Of a stretch of 10,151 nucleotides of DNA, positions 1,512 through 9,979 are shown piece by piece. Position 1 is the first letter of the stretch, and each line of letters opens with the position of its first letter. A program made the translations under genes and the position numbers. Origin of the DNA: a virus; UHGV virus genome UHGV-0767307; one strand, 5' to 3'. The notes beneath the pieces are model-generated. The model was not told where the DNA came from. It saw nothing but the letters and a program-made list of their open reading frames with translations, and ran no database searches.

Positions 1512-1673
1512 ATGAAAAAAGCATTTGCTGCACTGTTCGTTTTGTTGTCTCTGGTAGCTTCAACTCAGGCCTTTGCCGGTCGTTGTCAGCACGACAGCGA
1601 TACCGCCGCTGACGGCTCCCGCTGCGGTGGGCGTTCTGCGGATTCCCGCCCGGGCGGCGGTGGCATTCGTTAA
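1512..1673 (+). CDS. Small secreted peptide precursor (53 aa: Sec-type signal peptide plus a 31-aa Gly/Arg/Asp-rich mature part with 2 Cys)
   Basis: ATG 1512 gives MKKAFAALFVLLSLVASTQAFA|GRCQHDSDTAADGSRCGGRSADSRPGGGGIR, with a textbook n-h-c signal peptide and an AFA cleavage motif. The ORF track starts at GTG 1440, which would put 24 residues in front of the signal peptide, so ATG 1512 is preferred. The 3' half is markedly GC-rich. A 5-codon upstream ORF at 1498-1515 (MEISQ) with SD GAGGTGG overlaps the ATG. The gene is short, so a chance ORF is not excluded. Confidence 0.5.
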   Translation: MKKAFAALFVLLSLVASTQAFAGRCQHDSDTAADGSRCGGRSADSRPGGGGIR

Positions 1674-1696
1674 AAACAAGGCCGCGAAAGCGGCCT
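1671..1696 (-). terminator. Intrinsic terminator for the minus-strand gene 1710..2159 (hairpin shared with the end of the + strand peptide gene)
   Basis: Stem GGCCGC (1680-1685) / GCGGCC (1690-1695) with a GAAA tetraloop. On the - strand transcript it is followed by UUGUUUUUA (complement of 1671-1679). Lies 14 nt downstream of the - strand stop at 1710-1712. There is no U-tract on the + strand side. Confidence 0.55.
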
Positions 1697-1709
1697 GTGA
1701 CATGTCACG

Positions 1710-2159
1710 CTACTTGCGAAATCTTTCTTTACCCTTCCAGCCAGTAGATGTTAGTTCAGGATGAATGGTTCCCAATATAAAGCCAACCATAGCGGAGCGA
1801 GGATCTTCTATTTTATCCGTTAATTCTTCGGCATAACTCACAGGCAACCAAGCAACAAGATCACCAATCCTCAGCTTTGGTCCTTTGCTGTAAGATGAAT
1901 CGGCAATAACAAAAAATCCACCATCAGCTGAGCACACCTTCAGCATTGCCCTTTGTCTTCCAGAATCTAGCAAAACTGGCTGTTCCCCACTTGGACCAGG
2001 TATGATGATGGCTGGCATTGGTTTATTGGCTGAAAGGCTTGTGTCAAGATACTTACACGCATACTCAAAAGCTGAAAAGTTATCCTTAAAGATAAGAGGT
2101 TGAATTTTATTGCTAACCTCCTTACCACCGATTAATCTGTTGATCATCTTCTTGAACAT
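1710..2159 (-). CDS. Hypothetical protein, 149 aa, cytoplasmic-looking, unknown function
   Basis: Minus-strand ORF with stop at 1710-1712. The track starts at GTG 2166-2168, but the in-frame ATG at 2157-2159 is preceded by AGGTGA with a 5-nt spacer, and the GGTGA is built from that GTG, so ATG 2159 is preferred. GC about 40%. Protein MFKKMINRLIGG...; no motif recognised. Confidence 0.6.
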   Translation of the reverse strand: MFKKMINRLIGGKEVSNKIQPLIFKDNFSAFEYACKYLDTSLSANKPMPAIIIPGPSGEQPVLLDSGRQRAMLKVCSADGGFFVIADSSYSKGPKLRIGDLVAWLPVSYAEELTDKIEDPRSAMVGFILGTIHPELTSTGWKGKERFRK

Positions 2160-2171
2160 AAAGGTCACCTA

Positions 2172-2612
2172 ATGATTAAGCCGATGCACGCTATTACAGC
2201 TACCGTTTTGTTTATCCTACCAATTTTTTTGTTTGCAAACGACATATGTTTTAAGAATTTAATAAATGAGGATATGTGTGCACATGCAAACAAAATTGCA
2301 TCAGAAGCAGGAAAGTCACTTCCCATAAAATTGAATGATAATATGTCTATTGTTTCAATAAATGCAATACTAAACAAACTTTTAGTTGTAGCGCATCTTA
2401 ATTACAACAACAGCTATTTATCAAAAGTTTATAACGGTGATGTAACCTTAGAAAATAAATTAAAGAGTGTAATGCGAAATTATTCAAAATCGAGCATTTG
2501 CTCCAACAGGCAAATGAAAGCATTTATTCACCTTGGCGGAGAGATTGAATATAGGTATGTATTTAGTGATGGCAATATATTTGATACATACGCCATCACT
2601 AATTGTGAATAG
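2172..2612 (+). CDS. Secreted or membrane-anchored protein, 146 aa, AT-rich moron gene of unknown function
   Basis: ORF 2172..2612 at roughly 30-32% GC. A 146-codon open frame is very unlikely by chance at that composition (rough estimate P about 1e-5). The N-terminus MIKPMHAITATVLFILPIFLFA is a signal peptide or signal anchor. The protein is Asn/Lys/Ile-rich with 4 Cys. Its TAG stop (2610-2612) abuts the stop of the convergent 2613.. gene. Confidence 0.7.
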   Translation: MIKPMHAITATVLFILPIFLFANDICFKNLINEDMCAHANKIASEAGKSLPIKLNDNMSIVSINAILNKLLVVAHLNYNNSYLSKVYNGDVTLENKLKSVMRNYSKSSICSNRQMKAFIHLGGEIEYRYVFSDGNIFDTYAITNCE

Positions 2613-5324
2613 CTATTTCATCTGCTCTTCAACTTTATTTAGTAACGGTGATATCGCCCACAGGTTCTGAAAAGGTAGCATTTTACGGACCGCGTGGGTT
2701 TGCTGGCTGTCAAATTCTCCGTTAAGTACACCATTCGCAACCGTCGCGGCATCACCGCCAAGATCAAAGGTAGGACCAAGTAAAGCACCAATAGCATTAC
2801 GACTCTGAAACCTTGATACCGGAGGCGCACCAAACATCGCGCCAAGACCAAACCTACCGCCGCTTATGTTCTCAACGGTATTCAGCGGCTCAGAGAGCCA
2901 GCCAAGCATTCCGCCCCGGTCGATCCCCTCTTTCACAAGGTTATTCCAGCTGTAGTCGATATCGCGACCGCTTAACTTCTGTTTCATCATATAGACCATT
3001 GAGCCAAGCGCAATCGTGCCAAGCGCACCAAGATAGAATGCAGCATCGCCCTGCTGGATACCAGATACTAGCACCCTGTTATGCTGTGCGAAGATAAACG
3101 TTTTGAACTGCGTGATCATCTTCCAGCCTTCTTTACTAAAAAACAGCGGTGTATCACCTACGCCAGGCGTTACAATCACTGAGTCTACATCTTTCAGCAC
3201 TGCAGACTGGAAAATCTCTCTAGCGAAACGGTCATCCCACAGATGACTATGCCCGGTTAACAGCCCGTCCATATCCTCTCCGTGCTCCCCGAATTGCTCC
3301 CCGATTCGGCGCAGAACATCTTCATTGATGCCGACCTGTGCCATCTTCCGCATTTCACTTTTGGAGAGCGTGCCACCAGCAGAAACTTGGCGAGCCGCGT
3401 CAAGTATCCTCGACTGCACTATCATCCCGGACCATGATTTAAGTGCGCTGTTCCACTGATTCATCAGCGTCCAGTTACCGAATTTCTGCGTCATCCAGTT
3501 CAGACCTCGCTCAGCGGCGCTTCTCCGGCTATAGGGGTCAGTAAGATCCGCTATAGCCTTTGTACGCGTAGACAGGACATAATCAAGCCCAACGGCCATT
3601 TCTCGCAAATCCCTGGTTGCAATTTTCACTGAGTCCATATTTTTAAGCATGCTTACCATTGGTCCGAGAGATTTTCTCAGGCCATGCTGCATCATCGGTC
3701 GCATCAGATCAGTTGCAGCGGAGACAGTCATTCCACCAAGCAAACGGAGGAAGTTAATATTCCTAGCAACTCGCCCGGCACGAACAAAGAAACTGCGTGG
3801 ATCTTGAGGTGCACCGTAAGTACCAAGCAGTCGATCACGCATAGCCGTAATATCCCTAATATCAGCCTCCCGTTGCTTCTCAAGAACTGCACGTCGTTTA
3901 GGTGTTTTAGCCTCTTTTATTAGCCGGGTATATTCCTCACTAACCTGACGGATTTGCTCCCCCATATCTTTACGGCCAAACTGCGCAGTCAGCTCAATTT
4001 CTGGTGCCACCTGCCGGAGATAACTTTCCATGATGTAGTTAACATCTGATTCAAGAAAATCTTCTATACGCTCATCAGGAATAAGCAGCGTTCTGCTTTT
4101 AGTGAAACCAGCCCGACCAACGAGTCTCTCTGGGATAATATCGGCTGGTACAAGCCCGGAAGGTGCGCCTATTATTTTATTCACGATCTCGTCAGCAGCG
4201 TCCTCTGCTTCCTCTCGGGATAGAGGCTCCATCTGCTTCAGTGCTCGTTCGCGGCTTGCATTCAGCCTTGTGGTTGAATTTGCCCGTTTTTGCAGTCGGC
4301 GAAGCTCAGAACGATATTTCCGTGGATTATCCAGCAACTCCATATGGCGCTGATAGACAGGAAGCTCACTCTTTGCCTGCGCTATATCATCAAGGCGTGT
4401 TTTAAGGTCAGAGCTTTCTTTCATCATTCTTGCCTGAAGTTTTTCTGATGAAGTCTCGGCCAACTCTTTTTCTATTCTTGTAAGACGCGCCTGTGTGTCA
4501 GTCTCCTGAGATATAAGCTTATTTCGTTTATCCAGTTCTTCCATGAGTAGAATTTTTTTACCAGACCATTTCTCCGCTTCAGCGATTTCACTAGCGAGAG
4601 CATCAGCGCGCGGTGCCGATTCCTCTGCAGTTTTTAGCAATGAATTTATCCTTTCAATTCGCTGACCTGCTTTGTCAGCACCTTTGGCACTAATCCCTTG
4701 TATCCAGTTGGCAATTCGCCCTCTGAATTCAGTGCGGTCGGAAAGTATCTTATCGAACTTATAAATGCGGGGAAGATAACTTTTCGCCGTCACGACATCG
4801 ATATCCTCAGGAAGGATCCCCAGTTCCTGCATACGGGCTTTTGTGGTCTCGAAAATGGGGCGGATTCTGGCGGCTGCTTGTGAAACCTCAGGAATATCAC
4901 TCTGATCACCACGGCGCATAGCCATGCCAACAGCTTCATTGAAATCAATAAAGTTCATCCTCTTCACGCCGCGGGCGCTAACAGATTTGCTGTACTGCTG
5001 GTAAGCATCACGAGTGGCTTCCATCTGCTTATAAAGCATGGCGTCGTATTGCTTAATCTTAGTCTCGACTGCCGTAAACGTAGCCAACCCCTCATCATTT
5101 TTGGCGAAGAAATAGTTATTTTCGGCAAGCTGCTGGTTAATCTGACGGGAGACAAGAGATGGTGATTGAGCCAAGCGGCCAGCAGGAGTGACACTCAACG
5201 TTTTGTTAGCAAGTCCAAGTCCAGCGAGCTGTTCCTGATCGAGTGTGGTATTGAAAACCTGAGCTGCACCAATGCTTTGAGGAGAATCCATACCTCGCAA
5301 ATGATTACCTACTGAGTTAACCAC
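2613..5324 (-). CDS. C-terminal portion (903-codon ORF) of a large internal-virion / ejection-like protein gene split by a tandem duplication
   Basis: The open frame 2613..5324 begins at GTG 5322-5324 (first ATG at 5289-5291), neither with a convincing Shine-Dalgarno. Its first 188 residues are identical to the last residues of ORF 5392..6657 because of the 655-bp repeat. Removing one copy joins the two ORFs in frame. It contains a long charged coiled-coil-like region (..ELDKRNKLISQETDTQARLTRIEKELAETSSEKLQARMMKESSDLKTRLDD..) and a Gly-rich C-terminal end. Confidence 0.7.
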   Translation of the reverse strand: MVNSVGNHLRGMDSPQSIGAAQVFNTTLDQEQLAGLGLANKTLSVTPAGRLAQSPSLVSRQINQQLAENNYFFAKNDEGLATFTAVETKIKQYDAMLYKQMEATRDAYQQYSKSVSARGVKRMNFIDFNEAVGMAMRRGDQSDIPEVSQAAARIRPIFETTKARMQELGILPEDIDVVTAKSYLPRIYKFDKILSDRTEFRGRIANWIQGISAKGADKAGQRIERINSLLKTAEESAPRADALASEIAEAEKWSGKKILLMEELDKRNKLISQETDTQARLTRIEKELAETSSEKLQARMMKESSDLKTRLDDIAQAKSELPVYQRHMELLDNPRKYRSELRRLQKRANSTTRLNASRERALKQMEPLSREEAEDAADEIVNKIIGAPSGLVPADIIPERLVGRAGFTKSRTLLIPDERIEDFLESDVNYIMESYLRQVAPEIELTAQFGRKDMGEQIRQVSEEYTRLIKEAKTPKRRAVLEKQREADIRDITAMRDRLLGTYGAPQDPRSFFVRAGRVARNINFLRLLGGMTVSAATDLMRPMMQHGLRKSLGPMVSMLKNMDSVKIATRDLREMAVGLDYVLSTRTKAIADLTDPYSRRSAAERGLNWMTQKFGNWTLMNQWNSALKSWSGMIVQSRILDAARQVSAGGTLSKSEMRKMAQVGINEDVLRRIGEQFGEHGEDMDGLLTGHSHLWDDRFAREIFQSAVLKDVDSVIVTPGVGDTPLFFSKEGWKMITQFKTFIFAQHNRVLVSGIQQGDAAFYLGALGTIALGSMVYMMKQKLSGRDIDYSWNNLVKEGIDRGGMLGWLSEPLNTVENISGGRFGLGAMFGAPPVSRFQSRNAIGALLGPTFDLGGDAATVANGVLNGEFDSQQTHAVRKMLPFQNLWAISPLLNKVEEQMK

Positions 5325-5411
5325 TGCCTCGCGCGCGCTAGGTCCAGCAAGTAGCTGTGCACCAGCACCAAGGATCCCACCAACGAGAGCATCAACAACA
5401 ACGTTCGATAC
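4757..5411. repeat. Tandem direct repeat, copy A (655 bp)
   Basis: Identical to 5412-6066 wherever I compared the two copies in 60-nt blocks across the whole unit. Flanking bases differ (4756 A vs 5411 C; 5412 A vs 6067 G), so the boundaries are exact and the copies sit head-to-tail with no spacer. Confidence 0.9.
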
Positions 5412-6657
5412 ACTTATAAATGCGGGGAAGATAACTTTTCGCCGTCACGACATCGATATCCTCAGGAAGGATCCCCAGTTCCTGCATACGGGCTTTTGTG
5501 GTCTCGAAAATGGGGCGGATTCTGGCGGCTGCTTGTGAAACCTCAGGAATATCACTCTGATCACCACGGCGCATAGCCATGCCAACAGCTTCATTGAAAT
5601 CAATAAAGTTCATCCTCTTCACGCCGCGGGCGCTAACAGATTTGCTGTACTGCTGGTAAGCATCACGAGTGGCTTCCATCTGCTTATAAAGCATGGCGTC
5701 GTATTGCTTAATCTTAGTCTCGACTGCCGTAAACGTAGCCAACCCCTCATCATTTTTGGCGAAGAAATAGTTATTTTCGGCAAGCTGCTGGTTAATCTGA
5801 CGGGAGACAAGAGATGGTGATTGAGCCAAGCGGCCAGCAGGAGTGACACTCAACGTTTTGTTAGCAAGTCCAAGTCCAGCGAGCTGTTCCTGATCGAGTG
5901 TGGTATTGAAAACCTGAGCTGCACCAATGCTTTGAGGAGAATCCATACCTCGCAAATGATTACCTACTGAGTTAACCACTGCCTCGCGCGCGCTAGGTCC
6001 AGCAAGTAGCTGTGCACCAGCACCAAGGATCCCACCAACGAGAGCATCAACAACAACGTTCGATACGCTCTCCATCGGTGAGCGAGCTTCCTGAGTGGCC
6101 TGTAATGCGGCTTCTGATACTCCCCCACCAGCAGCATTCGCCAGGGCAAAACGCCCTGCCGTCTCAGCAATACTTCCTCCACGCGCTACCGCCCCTACAG
6201 GGATAAACATTGCAGCCACATTAACCGGGTCTATCATTCCCATTGCTAAGCTTGAAATAGTACCAGCACCACCCATTTCAGATAGATATTCTCTATCTGT
6301 TCTTTGCTTATCGATTCGATGTTTAATTGCCATTGTTTCTTCATGCGAACCGGAGTTGATAAACGAATCTGCAAAATCTTCATAGCCTTTAATATCTGCT
6401 GCATCGTTATCAAATGGGTTATATCCTTCAACCCTGTCAAACTGACTGAAAGGAGCACTGGCAATAAAGCTACCCAGCGTGTTATCTATACGAAATGCTG
6501 CTTGTCTAGACCTTTGAACGCGTTGATCACTGGTAAATGGGTTCACAGCAGAAAGCAAAGAAGGTGTTTCCATATAGAAATTACTGTCATCAGGTGCTGC
6601 TATTTGCTGAATATCCTCGCCAAGCAACTCTTTAGGATCCTGTTCATATATCGGCAT
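5392..6657 (-). CDS. N-terminal portion (421-codon ORF) of the same large virion protein gene, ending prematurely just after the duplication junction
   Basis: ATG at 6655-6657 overlaps the TAA of the upstream 915-aa gene (TAATG). The frame runs through copy B, crosses the junction at 5411/5412 out of frame and stops after 6 aberrant codons (..YLPRIYK-CIERCC*). It contains Gly/Ala-rich hydrophobic segments (..GGAGTISSLAMGMIDPVNVAAMFIPVGAVARGG.., ..LVGGILGAGAQLLAG..), consistent with a membrane-interacting ejection protein. Confidence 0.7.
   Translation of the reverse strand: MPIYEQDPKELLGEDIQQIAAPDDSNFYMETPSLLSAVNPFTSDQRVQRSRQAAFRIDNTLGSFIASAPFSQFDRVEGYNPFDNDAADIKGYEDFADSFINSGSHEETMAIKHRIDKQRTDREYLSEMGGAGTISSLAMGMIDPVNVAAMFIPVGAVARGGSIAETAGRFALANAAGGGVSEAALQATQEARSPMESVSNVVVDALVGGILGAGAQLLAGPSAREAVVNSVGNHLRGMDSPQSIGAAQVFNTTLDQEQLAGLGLANKTLSVTPAGRLAQSPSLVSRQINQQLAENNYFFAKNDEGLATFTAVETKIKQYDAMLYKQMEATRDAYQQYSKSVSARGVKRMNFIDFNEAVGMAMRRGDQSDIPEVSQAAARIRPIFETTKARMQELGILPEDIDVVTAKSYLPRIYKCIERCC
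5412..6066. repeat. Tandem direct repeat, copy B (655 bp)
   Basis: Second copy of the 655-bp unit. 655 = 3x218+1, so reading through both copies shifts the frame by +1. The track ORFs 4964..5194 and 5619..5849 are identical 76-aa by-products of the repeat. Confidence 0.9.
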
Positions 6658-9404
6658 TATTTGCCCCCTGCGTATATATTGCTCGGAAGGTAATTGGCTG
6701 AACCATAACCGAATGGTTTGGTCAGATCTGGAGGAGTATATCCATCTTTATTGCTGAACTGCGGCAGCGGATTGCCTTCTCTCCGCACTCTAGCCTCATC
6801 AACACGTTGTTGCTGGAACTGAATGGTTTGCCTGTACATTGGAGATGTCAGCTGATCCGGCTTGAAACGAACAGGGAGACCATTTTCTCCAATATAATTT
6901 CTCGGTTCTATCGCTCCGTTTGCGTCAGGCTGTAAAACCATAACAGCATAACTCCTATCCCTTGCCGTAAGGCCATCAGAAACAAGTATTAAGTCCGTAT
7001 CACTGCGAGGACCGCCAAAGGATTTTGATTTAAGCTCGCGTTTTTCCTGCTCCCACTGCCCCTGTATCCAGTTACCAGCACCATTATTTACTCCGTACAA
7101 TGCCTCAGGTGCATACTTCATAACCTCTGCTTTGCCATTAACCGTAGAAACTCCCCAGGTGGTTCTGATCATGGCATTGGTCATTTTCTCAGCCTGTTCT
7201 GCATCGCCACCTGTCTGTACAAAGTTAGCATCGTAAATTGTCTGGTAATCTCGCTGATAGGCCGCATTTGATTTTCCTGGATCGGTAATATCCGGAGACC
7301 ACGAACCAAAGGAAGTCAGACTGCTGGCGTTATTTTGTGCAGCAGTTGCCCTCGCCGCGACATATTTTTTGTCTCGCATGGCAGTGGAAAGCATCTGTTT
7401 CATTCGGTCATCCTGTTGGAACACCTGGCTGTAAGCCATATCAACAGCCTTATCCTCCGGCACGCCAGCGCGGGAATAATCGTAAACCTTGCCGTAAAAT
7501 GCCATCGTACTTTTATCAAGTGTTGCCGCTGCCGCCGGATTATTATCGAATAACTGACCGTAGAATTTTGCCATCGGGACAACCAGCGCAGGATCTCTTG
7601 ATGTTGCTCCACTGTTAAGCATTGTTTTAACCTGAGTTGGTATCATGCCGCTTTTAGTTGTGACGGTGACCAGTGTATTGATGCTCTGCGGATCAGATAT
7701 GGAAAACGAAGGCGCGATATCCTGCGCGAAATAACGGTCTACCGCTGCCTGATTGTTTTTGTCGTTCGGGTCCAGCGGGAAGTTATTTTGCATTGAAGAC
7801 ACGAACCTGTTTCTTCCCTGCTGAATCTCCCACTCCCTATCCATCTCTTTAAATTTGGCCTGCATTTTCTCCCAGCGTTGCTGGTTAGCTGCAAATCCAG
7901 GAGCGTTTGGATCCTGTGGACGTAAACGTTCAAGAATGTCTTGTCGTCCTTCTGGAGTGAGGTCTTTAGCGGCACCAATGACACCTCCATATTGTATCTG
8001 CGCCTGCATATCCTTCCACTTCATAGCGCCAATGCGCGGACCATTGGCCCGGATAAAATCGTCCTCAGAAGGTAACTTCTCAGGTTTCAATCCTTCATCA
8101 AGGGCTGAATATGCATCTTTAACTACGGTGCTAAGCTGGTCCGCATACTGCTGGCGGTACTGATTTCTCAGCTCATTAGCCTGCCTCAATGCCTGTATTT
8201 GCATTTGAGGGCTCATAGCATCAAATGCCGCATTGCCCGTATAACGCTTAGGTGAATCAAGGTTAGTTAGACCAAGGGCTGCCGAGATACCAGTTTCAAG
8301 CTGTTCGGTGCTATAAGGCATACTGCCATTTTCGTGTTTAATAATCCCAGCACATAAAGCAGCTAGTGTCTTTGGGTTAGAGATATCAAGCTGATCATTC
8401 TCCCCAACACCAAGCTCACCACACAATGCCCTAATATAAGCATCAGTATTATTACCATCACTAGCCGGAGCATAGCGATTAACAATCTCGCTAACGGTGT
8501 CATAGCCTTGACGCTGGTAAGACAACATATTTTTACCCAACGCGCGGATTCCATGCTCAGGGGTAGCAAACGTTGCAAAACGTCCATCGCTACCGATCTG
8601 ACCTTCCCACGGGTTAGATTTGCTCGCTTCAATATTACCAGGGTTATTATTACGTAAACCACGAGCATCCAATGAATTACCATGTGATATTGCACGACTC
8701 ACACCATCAAGATCCCCTGGCTCTCCATTAACCTGAAGAAACTCGTTGTATTTTTGAGCGATATTTCCTATCCATGCTTGCTGCCCCATTTGTTCCTTGA
8801 GCTGAGTTTTCTGCTGAACACGCCACTCATCAGGAAGCCCATGCGCATCAGCGTATTGATCAATAGATTCAAATCGCTGCTTGGCTAAATCGACAAATGC
8901 TTGGTTATCGCTATATAGCCCCGCAGACTGAGTGACAGCCAATGCATTTCCTGACAAATACGTTTGATCTTGGAATTGCTGAAACTGCCCAACTTCATAT
9001 CGACGTGCCTGATTGTAATAAGACTGCATAGACTGCTGGAGTTGAAAGGATAATTTATTCCTTTCCTCACTTTCAGGAATTGAGCCTAATAATGCCTGAG
9101 CCCTTTCCTGCATATTTTTCATAACAGCGTCACTCTGACCAAGAGCGTTTTTACCCTGTTTAGAAATCAGCCCACTTTCAGGGTTGTTAATCTGGTCATC
9201 TGCAAATTGGTTAAATTGCAGTAACGCCTCCTGGGCCATAGCAACATTCGCTTTCTGCCTGGCTTCACCATATGCCACCGCATACTGATCTGCGACATTC
9301 GCCAGCACCTGACCTGCTTGAGGAACATCGAAGATCTGAAAACCACCGGTTTGCACACCACGACTTTGCACCTGGCGTCCGGATGTAGTAGGAACAACAG
9401 GCAT
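6657..9404 (-). CDS. Large virion protein, 915 aa (internal-virion / ejection-protein-like), with a central conserved-looking RNNNPGNI...W.G module
   Basis: Uninterrupted 2748-nt ORF. The ATG at 9402-9404 overlaps the TGA of the 191-aa gene (TGATG) and is preceded by a perfect AGGAGG (complement of 9410-9415). The stop overlaps the next ATG. The protein is Gln-rich with no recognisable enzymatic motif except the ..GLRNNNPGNIEASKSNPWEGQ..FATF..PEHGIRAL.. segment. The functional call is inferred from size and order. Confidence 0.85.
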   Translation of the reverse strand: MPVVPTTSGRQVQSRGVQTGGFQIFDVPQAGQVLANVADQYAVAYGEARQKANVAMAQEALLQFNQFADDQINNPESGLISKQGKNALGQSDAVMKNMQERAQALLGSIPESEERNKLSFQLQQSMQSYYNQARRYEVGQFQQFQDQTYLSGNALAVTQSAGLYSDNQAFVDLAKQRFESIDQYADAHGLPDEWRVQQKTQLKEQMGQQAWIGNIAQKYNEFLQVNGEPGDLDGVSRAISHGNSLDARGLRNNNPGNIEASKSNPWEGQIGSDGRFATFATPEHGIRALGKNMLSYQRQGYDTVSEIVNRYAPASDGNNTDAYIRALCGELGVGENDQLDISNPKTLAALCAGIIKHENGSMPYSTEQLETGISAALGLTNLDSPKRYTGNAAFDAMSPQMQIQALRQANELRNQYRQQYADQLSTVVKDAYSALDEGLKPEKLPSEDDFIRANGPRIGAMKWKDMQAQIQYGGVIGAAKDLTPEGRQDILERLRPQDPNAPGFAANQQRWEKMQAKFKEMDREWEIQQGRNRFVSSMQNNFPLDPNDKNNQAAVDRYFAQDIAPSFSISDPQSINTLVTVTTKSGMIPTQVKTMLNSGATSRDPALVVPMAKFYGQLFDNNPAAAATLDKSTMAFYGKVYDYSRAGVPEDKAVDMAYSQVFQQDDRMKQMLSTAMRDKKYVAARATAAQNNASSLTSFGSWSPDITDPGKSNAAYQRDYQTIYDANFVQTGGDAEQAEKMTNAMIRTTWGVSTVNGKAEVMKYAPEALYGVNNGAGNWIQGQWEQEKRELKSKSFGGPRSDTDLILVSDGLTARDRSYAVMVLQPDANGAIEPRNYIGENGLPVRFKPDQLTSPMYRQTIQFQQQRVDEARVRREGNPLPQFSNKDGYTPPDLTKPFGYGSANYLPSNIYAGGK

Positions 9405-9979
9405 CAGTAACCTCCTATTTTGAATCGGGAGTCAGAATTCATAAAACCTGAGTTAGATAACATTGGCGTCCCACCACTAGATGTACTTCCTTTAGAGAAC
9501 GGACTCCACGTCCCACCAAACATCTGGTACGCACCGTATGCCTTCAGAGGCGCAGTGAGCAATGTTGTTGCTGCTCCCACATTCCCCTGTTTACGGGCTG
9601 AACTGGCTTCTGCTTTATAGTTGGCAGCCTGAACCTGATAACCGTAAGCCTCGCGTTGCGCGTTATTCACCGTCGTCAGCGAATCAAGAGCGCCAAACTG
9701 GGCAGTGTCGCCAAATATATCCAGCGCGTTACCTGTAGATAAATCAGCGCCGGTAGCCCCCATTGTCGCTGCCTGTGTACCAAGCCGCTGTCGGGTCTCT
9801 CTGCGTCGTTGCTCAGCTTCAGCGTTACCTCTGTTTATTGCATCATTTGCCTGAGCTGTGGCTATATCTGCGTTCGCTTCTGCAACCTTCGAGGCATACT
9901 TTCCCTGTTGGTACTGGGTGTATGCCTGAATGCCACTCATGGCGAGCATTGCGCCACCAGCAATAACCGGATCGCACAT
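9404..9979 (-). CDS. Small virion-associated protein, 191 aa, with N-terminal hydrophobic segment and Ala/Gln-rich helical region
   Basis: ORF with ATG at 9977-9979 preceded by GGAGAG (5-6 nt spacer). N-terminus MCDPVIAGGAMLAMSGIQAY is hydrophobic, followed by an Ala/Gln/Asn-rich stretch and a Gly/Ser-rich C-terminus. Coupled to both neighbours by 1-nt stop/start overlaps. In position and size it is analogous to the small internal virion protein that precedes the two large ones in T7-like podoviruses (inference). Confidence 0.8.
   Translation of the reverse strand: MCDPVIAGGAMLAMSGIQAYTQYQQGKYASKVAEANADIATAQANDAINRGNAEAEQRRRETRQRLGTQAATMGATGADLSTGNALDIFGDTAQFGALDSLTTVNNAQREAYGYQVQAANYKAEASSARKQGNVGAATTLLTAPLKAYGAYQMFGGTWSPFSKGSTSSGGTPMLSNSGFMNSDSRFKIGGY

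Follow-up and report, generated by a model that had tools for sequence, protein, structure and literature searches.

The window analyzed here is a 10,151-nt stretch of the virus genome UHGV-0767307, derived from an epsilon15/phiV10-like prophage of Escherichia coli with DNA matches to TL-2011b, EC.W1-9 and phiV10. At the end of its ejection genes, two small genes, designated A (minus strand) and B (plus strand), are packed start to start, and B lies stop to stop with the gp16-like gene. Together they form a two-gene accessory (cargo) cassette in a hypervariable slot, which extends from the stop codon of the gp16-like gene to a palindrome and a terminator. The best explanation of the whole, given a probability of about 0.5, is that of an exchangeable cargo cassette in which B would encode an envelope protein expressed in the lysogen, against the direction of the late genes, and A would be a late gene reached by read-through.

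Direct reading of the sequence showed that an initial annotation of this DNA had given the coordinates of both open reading frames (ORFs), the spacing of their start codons and the abutting stops exactly (Table 1). The identical pair of coding sequences (CDSs) was called by the ORF list and by the RefSeq annotation of a 99.9% identical prophage, where they are entered as WP_000473936.1 (450 nt) and WP_000595048.1 (441 nt). Each gene has its own Shine-Dalgarno sequence, AAGG with a 7-nt spacer for B and AGGTGA with a 5-nt spacer for A. The two ribosome-binding sites had been described as interleaved; they are instead adjacent, side by side in a 9-bp near-palindrome (AGGTCACCT). As had been proposed, B is antisense to the transcription unit of the gp14/15/16-like ejection genes, and it is AT-rich, its GC content (31.5%) being far below that of its surroundings (48.6% for the gp16-like ORF and 46.8-51.7% for the virion genes). 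Gene A (41.8%) is also below its flanks, less so than B. At the junction between the stops of B and of the gp16-like gene no hairpin was found, the folds (-5.1 and -8.2 kcal/mol) being no different from those of shuffled sequences. The view that there is no room for a promoter or a terminator held at both junctions, but it had overlooked a strong minus-strand terminator located 13 nt past the stop codon of A.

The tight layout is more than chance, as it recurs in at least six diverged lineages. The gap between the start codons is 12 nt in the window, in L030 and in L013, 13 nt in L040, 19 nt in L004 from Cedecea davisae and 23 nt in L015-17, and each of these head-to-head gaps contains Shine-Dalgarno sequences on both strands. 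The A homologues of the head-to-head lineages are 57-85% identical and their partner is a small signal-peptide gene. This partner varies: in L013, L015-17 and L040 it encodes a different secreted protein, referred to as B2. A comparison of B2 with the type found in the window (B1) by hhalign returned a probability of 83%, mainly from the signal peptide, so the homology of the two is unproven. At the opposite end, the B-type stop directly touches that of the gp16-like gene both in the window, as TAGCTA, and in Klebsiella, as TAATTA. L013 and L015 show a 4-nt overlap of the two stops and Cedecea a distance of 3 nt; a wider gap, of 46 nt and with a hairpin, was seen in Providencia only. Both genes turned out to be conserved and under purifying selection, with dN/dS values well below 1 (0.08-0.23 for A and 0.14-0.20 for B) where dS was not saturated.

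Exchange of the slot content was examined among E. coli prophages, using 5,426 complete genomes. The left flank of the slot, consisting of a gene for a 53-aa peptide and the terminator, was common to approximately 533 of them. The A and B genes were present in 14 genomes, always together (14 of 14), among them E. coli 2/0 (NZ_CP023853) and MS20659 (NZ_CP082073), and these copies were at least 98.7% identical. In the closest relatives, EC.W1-9 and APEC O18, a single gene for a 283-aa secreted protein occupies the same position between the same flanks, on the late strand. Homology between the window and these two relatives breaks at ~1698/1699 and at 2612/2613. Both genes are thus flanked by the breakpoints, and A and B were therefore exchanged as one block. 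The ATG of the 283-aa cargo gene is located 1 nt past the gp16-like stop (TAG-G-ATG), so that its translation is coupled to that of gp16. Its product (L002 3287-4138 and L003 3304-4155) is a Cys-rich secreted protein without family match. Other relatives display yet other contents. The slot of phiV10 holds only a 46-aa two-helix membrane ORF and that of EFF60 two small membrane ORFs, while TL-2011b has arc- and ant-like genes and a gene for a B2-type secreted or anchored protein, convergent with gp16, which weakly matched B2 (E 3e-4) and did not match B1. All cargo seen in the slot directly after gp16, i.e. the 283-aa protein and the membrane ORFs of phiV10 and EFF60, is envelope-targeted.

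Comparison with related phages, a check suggested by the initial annotation, confirmed that A and B move separately, since each occurs without the other. Gene A was found without a B-type gene in L011, L012, L014 and L041, in line and on the same strand as the virion genes, of which it is the last follower. In these A-only loci, it comes after a gp16 of another type (824 aa, similar to phiV10 p20) and a 46-aa membrane ORF. Conversely, B was found without A in Klebsiella (L008-10, 71-73% identical), in Providencia (L005-7, 37%) and in L031 and L032. The Klebsiella B gene lies 11 nt downstream of a gene for an Mnt-like ribbon-helix-helix protein (E 1e-8 against P22 Mnt); arc and an Ant homologue (E 5e-40) diverge from this gene. 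The whole is a complete immI module of the P22 type, in which B takes the place of sieA. The gp16 type of the window was joined directly to A in none of the relatives, while it was stop to stop with B-type genes in prophages of Klebsiella, Providencia and others, irrespective of what preceded the latter. B-type genes thus appear to be anchored to the 3' end of this gp16 type, with variable upstream content, including A. Within the cassette, a junction module of about 180 bp, comprising the first ~110 nt of A, the spacer and the signal-peptide part of B, is 80-93% identical to L013. In that lineage the mature domain is of the B2 type and the middle of A is only ~55% identical. The boundary between signal peptide and mature domain is thus a point of recombination.

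The distal end of the slot is formed by two sequence elements. The terminator is an intrinsic hairpin with a fold of -16.5 kcal/mol (z -2.8), a value reached by none of 200 shuffled sequences. It was found by pattern scan, is annotated as a terminator in phiV10 and is kept in more than 500 E. coli prophages. As the plus side is devoid of a U-tract, it functions on the minus strand only, and it is predicted to end the minus-strand transcription unit containing A. Between this hairpin and the stop codon of A lies a perfect 12-bp palindrome, GTGACATGTCAC. It is found directly 3' of the last minus-strand cargo gene in all A loci, in phiV10, TL-2011b and EFF60 and in the Klebsiella loci (the loci with it include L004, L008-L010, L011-L017, L019-L022, L040 and L041); a variant, GTGACNNGTCAC, occurs in relatives. 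Its position is kept in nearly every relative, irrespective of the cargo or of the divergence of the surroundings; it is not present in EC.W1-9 or APEC O18. This distribution points to a conserved element that marks the distal boundary of the slot. It may bind a protein, delimit the exchange of cassettes or form an additional RNA hairpin. A CRP or LexA site was considered upon reading and rejected, as half-site spacing or sequence did not fit. Likewise, a terminator-like site within B (minus strand, 2516-2495), considered as a barrier to read-through, was discarded because it folded like shuffled sequences (z -0.08). A search of Rfam with positions 1400-2900 (E<=1) returned no non-coding RNA.

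The product of B carries a signal peptide of the signal peptidase I type (MIKPMHAITATVLFILPIFLFA|ND). Its AlphaFold model was of low confidence for residues 1-25 (pLDDT below 50) and reached a pLDDT of ~90 for the remainder. According to this model, the mature domain adopts the AspS/PA3611 pilotin-like fold, with the shared succession of elements alpha1, beta1-3, alpha2-3 and beta4-5, and it possesses an extra helix after strand 3, as does PA3611. Four cysteines (Cys26, Cys36, Cys110 and Cys145) are invariant. A disulfide between helix alpha2 and the C-terminal region is conserved in AspS and PA3611 (PMC3542185); the B residues Cys110 and Cys145 are 35 residues apart, compared with 37 for the AspS disulfide. 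PA3611 has no lipobox (PMC3542185), and the signal peptides of B and of eight homologues likewise end in ..S-x-A|N-D/E/N without a lipobox. In AspS proper, by contrast, the lipobox Cys targets the pilotin to the outer membrane. Several features also distinguish B from both proteins. Identity is only ~15%, a second invariant cysteine pair (Cys26/Cys36) is present, and the gene belongs to a prophage, beside ejection genes, its vicinity being free of secretin and type II secretion genes. Membership in the AspS/PA3611 sequence family was not found either, as B had no Pfam match at E<=0.01 and a profile search of all PDB sequences retrieved neither protein. A linkage to type II secretion was not found in any locus examined, the neighbours being phage genes in each. 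B is most likely a periplasmic protein acting in the cell envelope, and superinfection exclusion, by analogy with the position of P22 sieA, is the leading guess for its role there.

Protein A is a cytoplasmic protein of 149 aa (phrog_9944) belonging to a broad family, with 307 representative clusters (50% identity) at E<=1e-3 and 171 at E<=1e-10. It had no match in Pfam, NCBIfam, PADLOC or PDB, and its AlphaFold model was poor (pLDDT 55.8) and gave no fold match. The A domain was seen alone, in tandem, or C-terminal to membrane segments, zinc ribbons or a zeta-toxin-like kinase. As a source of functional clues, these fusion partners yielded only the zinc ribbons and one zeta-toxin-like kinase. 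The contexts of distant homologues gave no consistent clue, and two of the contigs were too short to tell. In one case the gene was found beside genes for an OLD-family nuclease and a recombinase, in a cargo region; others were chromosomal or beside a gp14-like gene in a prophage remnant. A pattern scan for A over one genome per species (GTDB) confirmed nothing, and the two RefSeq protein accessions and the two PHROG families of A and B were in no paper found.

A mechanism consistent with these data can be proposed. Gene B would be read from the other strand than the late genes and, most likely, during lysogeny; its Klebsiella homologue must be so expressed if it shares the mnt transcript. Since only 12 nt are available upstream, the B promoter would have to lie inside the coding sequence of A (first ~60 nt), unless B is reached by plus-strand read-through past the hairpin. 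A candidate for such a promoter, weak and sigma-70-like, is located in codons 8-17 of A, its -10 element ending 33 nt upstream of the B ATG. The same motif is found in register in L013, which has the same junction module, and TTGCCA-17-TATTCT is found in register in Cedecea L004, where the encoded residues differ; in L015, a similar motif (TTGCTT-18-TATCTT) ends 32 nt before the B ATG. Gene A, last in the late unit, would be transcribed by polymerases that leave the virion operon and read through antisense B, perhaps with a contribution from a weak promoter within B, and its transcript would be ended by the palindrome and the terminator. No signals separate B from gp16, so that transcription of either strand would run antisense through the genes of the other: the B transcript would continue unterminated into antisense gp16 in the lysogen, and late transcription would pass antisense through B. 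Since these transcripts are antisense to each other, late transcription and B expression should oppose one another by mutual interference. A split between lysogenic and lytic expression, as had been suggested initially, is plausible by analogy, and such interference has precedents in P22 immI and in the convergent promoters of coliphage 186. The extreme packing itself may be the product of modular recombination at gene boundaries.

Several observations weigh against this explanation. Promoter scores obtained with weight matrices (6.3-10.2) were within the range of shuffled sequences (median 7.0, 95th percentile 10.3), a consensus scan found two promoter-like sites where 3.7 were expected, and no sigma-70 consensus site was obtained for B. 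The 14 E. coli copies count as one event because all are at least 98.7% identical. Additionally, a distant A homologue is located 17 nt behind a cI-type repressor gene in Acinetobacter phage MD-2021a (L044 4896-5387), the position of lambda rex; A itself may thus be expressed in the lysogen and not be a late gene. Protein B displayed no sequence similarity to SieA (BLASTP E 3.3), and a comparison with the predicted viral structures of BFVD gave no significant match, which leaves its role a guess.

Other explanations of the locus were considered. The initial annotation interpreted B as a precise insertion: in an ancestral late operon in which A followed gp16, the AT-rich B would have been inserted between the two, antisense to both. 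Part of this view stood. The two genes are modules that can be separated, and in relatives with A alone this gene lies in line behind the virion genes. In addition, B is lower in GC than A (31.5% versus 41.8%), and it is exchangeable, since the B1 and B2 types occur in the same place beside similar A genes. An insertion of B alone is nevertheless unlikely. The A-only phages have the other gp16 type (824 aa) and the 46-aa membrane ORF, so they provide no empty-site version, and no gp16-A junction of the expected kind was seen. Moreover, B-type genes abut the gp16 type of the window in relatives devoid of A, the cassette breakpoints relative to the nearest relatives flank both genes together, and the two genes were never apart among the E. 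coli genomes surveyed (5,426). A view in which one of the ORFs is spurious, and the close packing an annotation artefact, could draw on the absence of Pfam and NCBIfam matches for both proteins and on the AT-rich DNA of B, in which long ORFs can arise by chance. It is effectively refuted by full-length homologues of both (29-85% identity, dN/dS 0.08-0.23), by the Shine-Dalgarno sequences of both genes, by the confident AlphaFold fold of B and by an end-to-end PHROG profile match for each gene.

It is about as doubtful as the insertion of B that the two genes function as a pair and are both active in the lysogen, each from a promoter located in the first ~60 nt of the other gene and facing that of its partner. 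For gene A, expression of this kind is the chief rival reading. One possibility within this scheme is phage exclusion or defence by an envelope sensor or blocker together with a partner in the cytoplasm; the overlap would be a regulatory switch. Such a pair would fit the pairing and its compact spacing, which persist across six or more lineages and down to 57% identity of A, and also the junction module, which remained 80-93% identical to L013 while the rest of both genes diverged or was replaced. The motif TTGC(T/C)A-17-TA(A/T)TCT, which precedes B in register in both E. coli and Cedecea, the A homologue directly behind a cI repressor and the fusions of A-family domains to membrane segments and to a zeta-toxin-like kinase point in the same direction. 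On the other hand, each gene occurs without the other, the partner of A alternates between B1 and B2, whose homology is unproven, and there were no PADLOC matches. Promoter candidates for A were weak and not conserved in position, and the best -10 candidate nearby in the window, TGTAAT, is devoid of the key A at position 2. The exchangeable cassette, with a lysogenic B and a late A, is preferred over a functional pair. A far-reaching extension, considered improbable, would make the B-type proteins an unrecognised class of prophage periplasmic pilotin-fold factors, anchored stop to stop to the gp16-like gene. They would bind a C-terminal peptide of an envelope machine, either the ejection channel proteins of an infecting phage of the T7/epsilon15 type or a host secretin, and thereby exclude superinfection or rewire secretion. 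The junction module would then be a portable face-to-face promoter switch turning off B, and perhaps A, under late transcription, and the palindrome would be the boundary of cassette exchange.

Table 1. Features of the A and B locus and of the neighbouring virion genes in the window
Feature	Position	Strand	Details
Gene A	2159..1710	minus	149 aa; CAT at 2157-2159 is the ATG; stop codon 1712-1710
Gene B	2172..2612	plus	146 aa; ATG 2172-2174; TAG 2610-2612; secreted product, phrog_8772 (function unknown); signal peptide ~2172-2240
Start-to-start spacer	2160-2171		AAAGGTCACCTA; 12 nt between divergent ATGs
Abutting convergent stops	2610..2615		TAGCTA: TAG of B and CTA (2613-2615) of the gp16-like gene
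Junction module	2053..2230		First ~110 nt of A, spacer and signal-peptide part of B
Candidate weak sigma-70-like promoter of B	2110..2138	plus	TTGCTA-17-TAATCT; in codons 8-17 of A; predicted
Palindrome	1697..1708		GTGACATGTCAC; perfect, 12 bp; between the A stop and the terminator
Predicted intrinsic terminator	1679..1696	minus	Hairpin AGGCCGC-UUUC-GCGGCCU, then U-tract UUGUUUUUAA to ~1669
gp14-like gene	9979..9404	minus	PF24072 T7_gp14, E 4e-8; RefSeq 'virion core protein, T7 gp14 family'
gp15-like gene	9404..6657	minus	T7-type internal virion (ejection) protein
gp16-like gene region	6657..2613	minus	T7-type internal virion (ejection) protein
gp16-like 3' ORF	5324..2613	minus	DUF919, phrog_342, phrog_16310

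The flanking unit faced by B was identified from Pfam and PHROG matches of the window genes to T7 gp14 and internal virion proteins (phrog_418, phrog_1044/992 and phrog_342 across the unit). The gp14-, gp15- and gp16-like genes follow each other on one strand in the order of the ejection operon of T7-like phages. In the 99.9% identical prophage (E. coli UID2309220026), the late strand reads gp14, gp15-like, gp16-like, antisense B, A and terminator. Past the terminator come plus-strand genes for a 53-aa exported peptide, a YafO-like protein and a BRO-N antirepressor-like protein, and then the tailspike and holin genes. The gene for the 53-aa peptide (1512-1673, plus strand, within the ORF 1440-1673) encodes a signal peptide and a mature part of ~30 residues rich in Gly, Arg and Cys. 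It is kept in more than 500 E. coli prophages and has its own plus-strand terminator upstream (AAGCCCGC..GCGGGCTTTTTT) and a TTGACG-type promoter-like site, so that it looks like a classical self-contained moron.

Two anomalies were observed in the window. The gp16-like gene contains a perfect 655-bp tandem direct duplication (4757-5411 and 5412-6066). Because 655 is not a multiple of 3, the gene is split into a 421-aa ORF (6657..5392) and a 903-aa ORF (5324..2613); in otherwise identical prophages it is a single CDS of 1129 aa. The duplication may be a recent one that inactivates the gene, or it may stem from the assembly. At the left end, bases 1-55 match, as reverse complement, the 5' portion of the tailspike gene of the 99.9% identical prophage (L001 3614-3668) and are joined, via an 11-nt overlap, to a 5'-truncated BRO-N antirepressor-like gene (45-721). 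This end is either a rearrangement junction or an assembly error.

The locus does not overturn current understanding, and it shows how far a temperate phage can compress its accessory genes, with a shared start spacer of 12 nt and no spacer between stops, under maintained selection. It also provides three leads: a family of secreted pilotin-fold proteins at the place of the superinfection-exclusion gene of P22, a broad family of cytoplasmic domains that has no Pfam entry and recurs in prophage cargo regions, and a conserved palindrome that bounds a hypervariable cargo slot in roughly a tenth of the complete E. coli genomes.

The closest known arrangement is the sieA-immI region of P22. According to the P22 annotation, gene 16 converges on sieA with a gap of 22 bp, followed by orf59a, mnt, arc, ant and the tailspike gene 9. 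As in P22, an anti-late gene converges here on the last ejection gene, with a gap of 0 bp, and its place is after the ejection genes and before the tailspike. The Klebsiella and TL-2011b relatives have mnt-, arc- and ant-like genes in the same slot. This match, an anti-late gene converging on the last ejection gene next to immI, is positional only. Protein B is not homologous to SieA, and SieA is an inner-membrane protein whereas B is a soluble secreted protein. The sieA gene has its own annotated promoter in the intergenic gap, and no such gap is present in the window. Furthermore, the flanking ejection genes of P22 are 7, 20 and 16, compared with T7-gp14/15/16-like genes here, and P22 has mnt, arc and ant where the window has A.

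The cassette also resembles the morons, the lysogenic-conversion cassettes of temperate phages defined for HK97 and lambda, as summarised in PMC3573123. At a fixed position between conserved genes, A and B are present in some relatives and replaced or absent in others: they occur in 14 of the ~533 E. coli prophages sharing the flank, the others having the 283-aa gene, membrane ORFs or arc/ant-like genes. The GC content of both genes is below that of the virion genes, and one of the two (B) is oriented against the flanking late genes. Classical morons possess their own promoter and terminator in flanking non-coding DNA, whereas two of the three junctions of this cassette are devoid of any such DNA. 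Its signals must therefore be inside coding sequence or shared, and the terminator past A belongs to the conserved flank, not to the cassette. A likeness to the pR/pL promoters of coliphage 186 and to Pant/Psar of P22 would exist only if each gene had its promoter inside the 5' coding region of the other. With dedicated promoters for both genes and a 12-nt spacer, the two polymerases would set out towards each other, and the mRNAs would be complementary at their 5' ends. In contrast to these systems, only candidate promoters were found here, with scans not above chance, and A is possibly transcribed by read-through entirely. Accessory genes located antisense in or after a late operon are already well known, and the architecture is a variant of the morons and of P22 sieA/immI. 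What sets it apart from both is the zero non-coding DNA at two junctions, the predicted pilotin-fold protein in the position of sieA and the uncharacterised partner gene.

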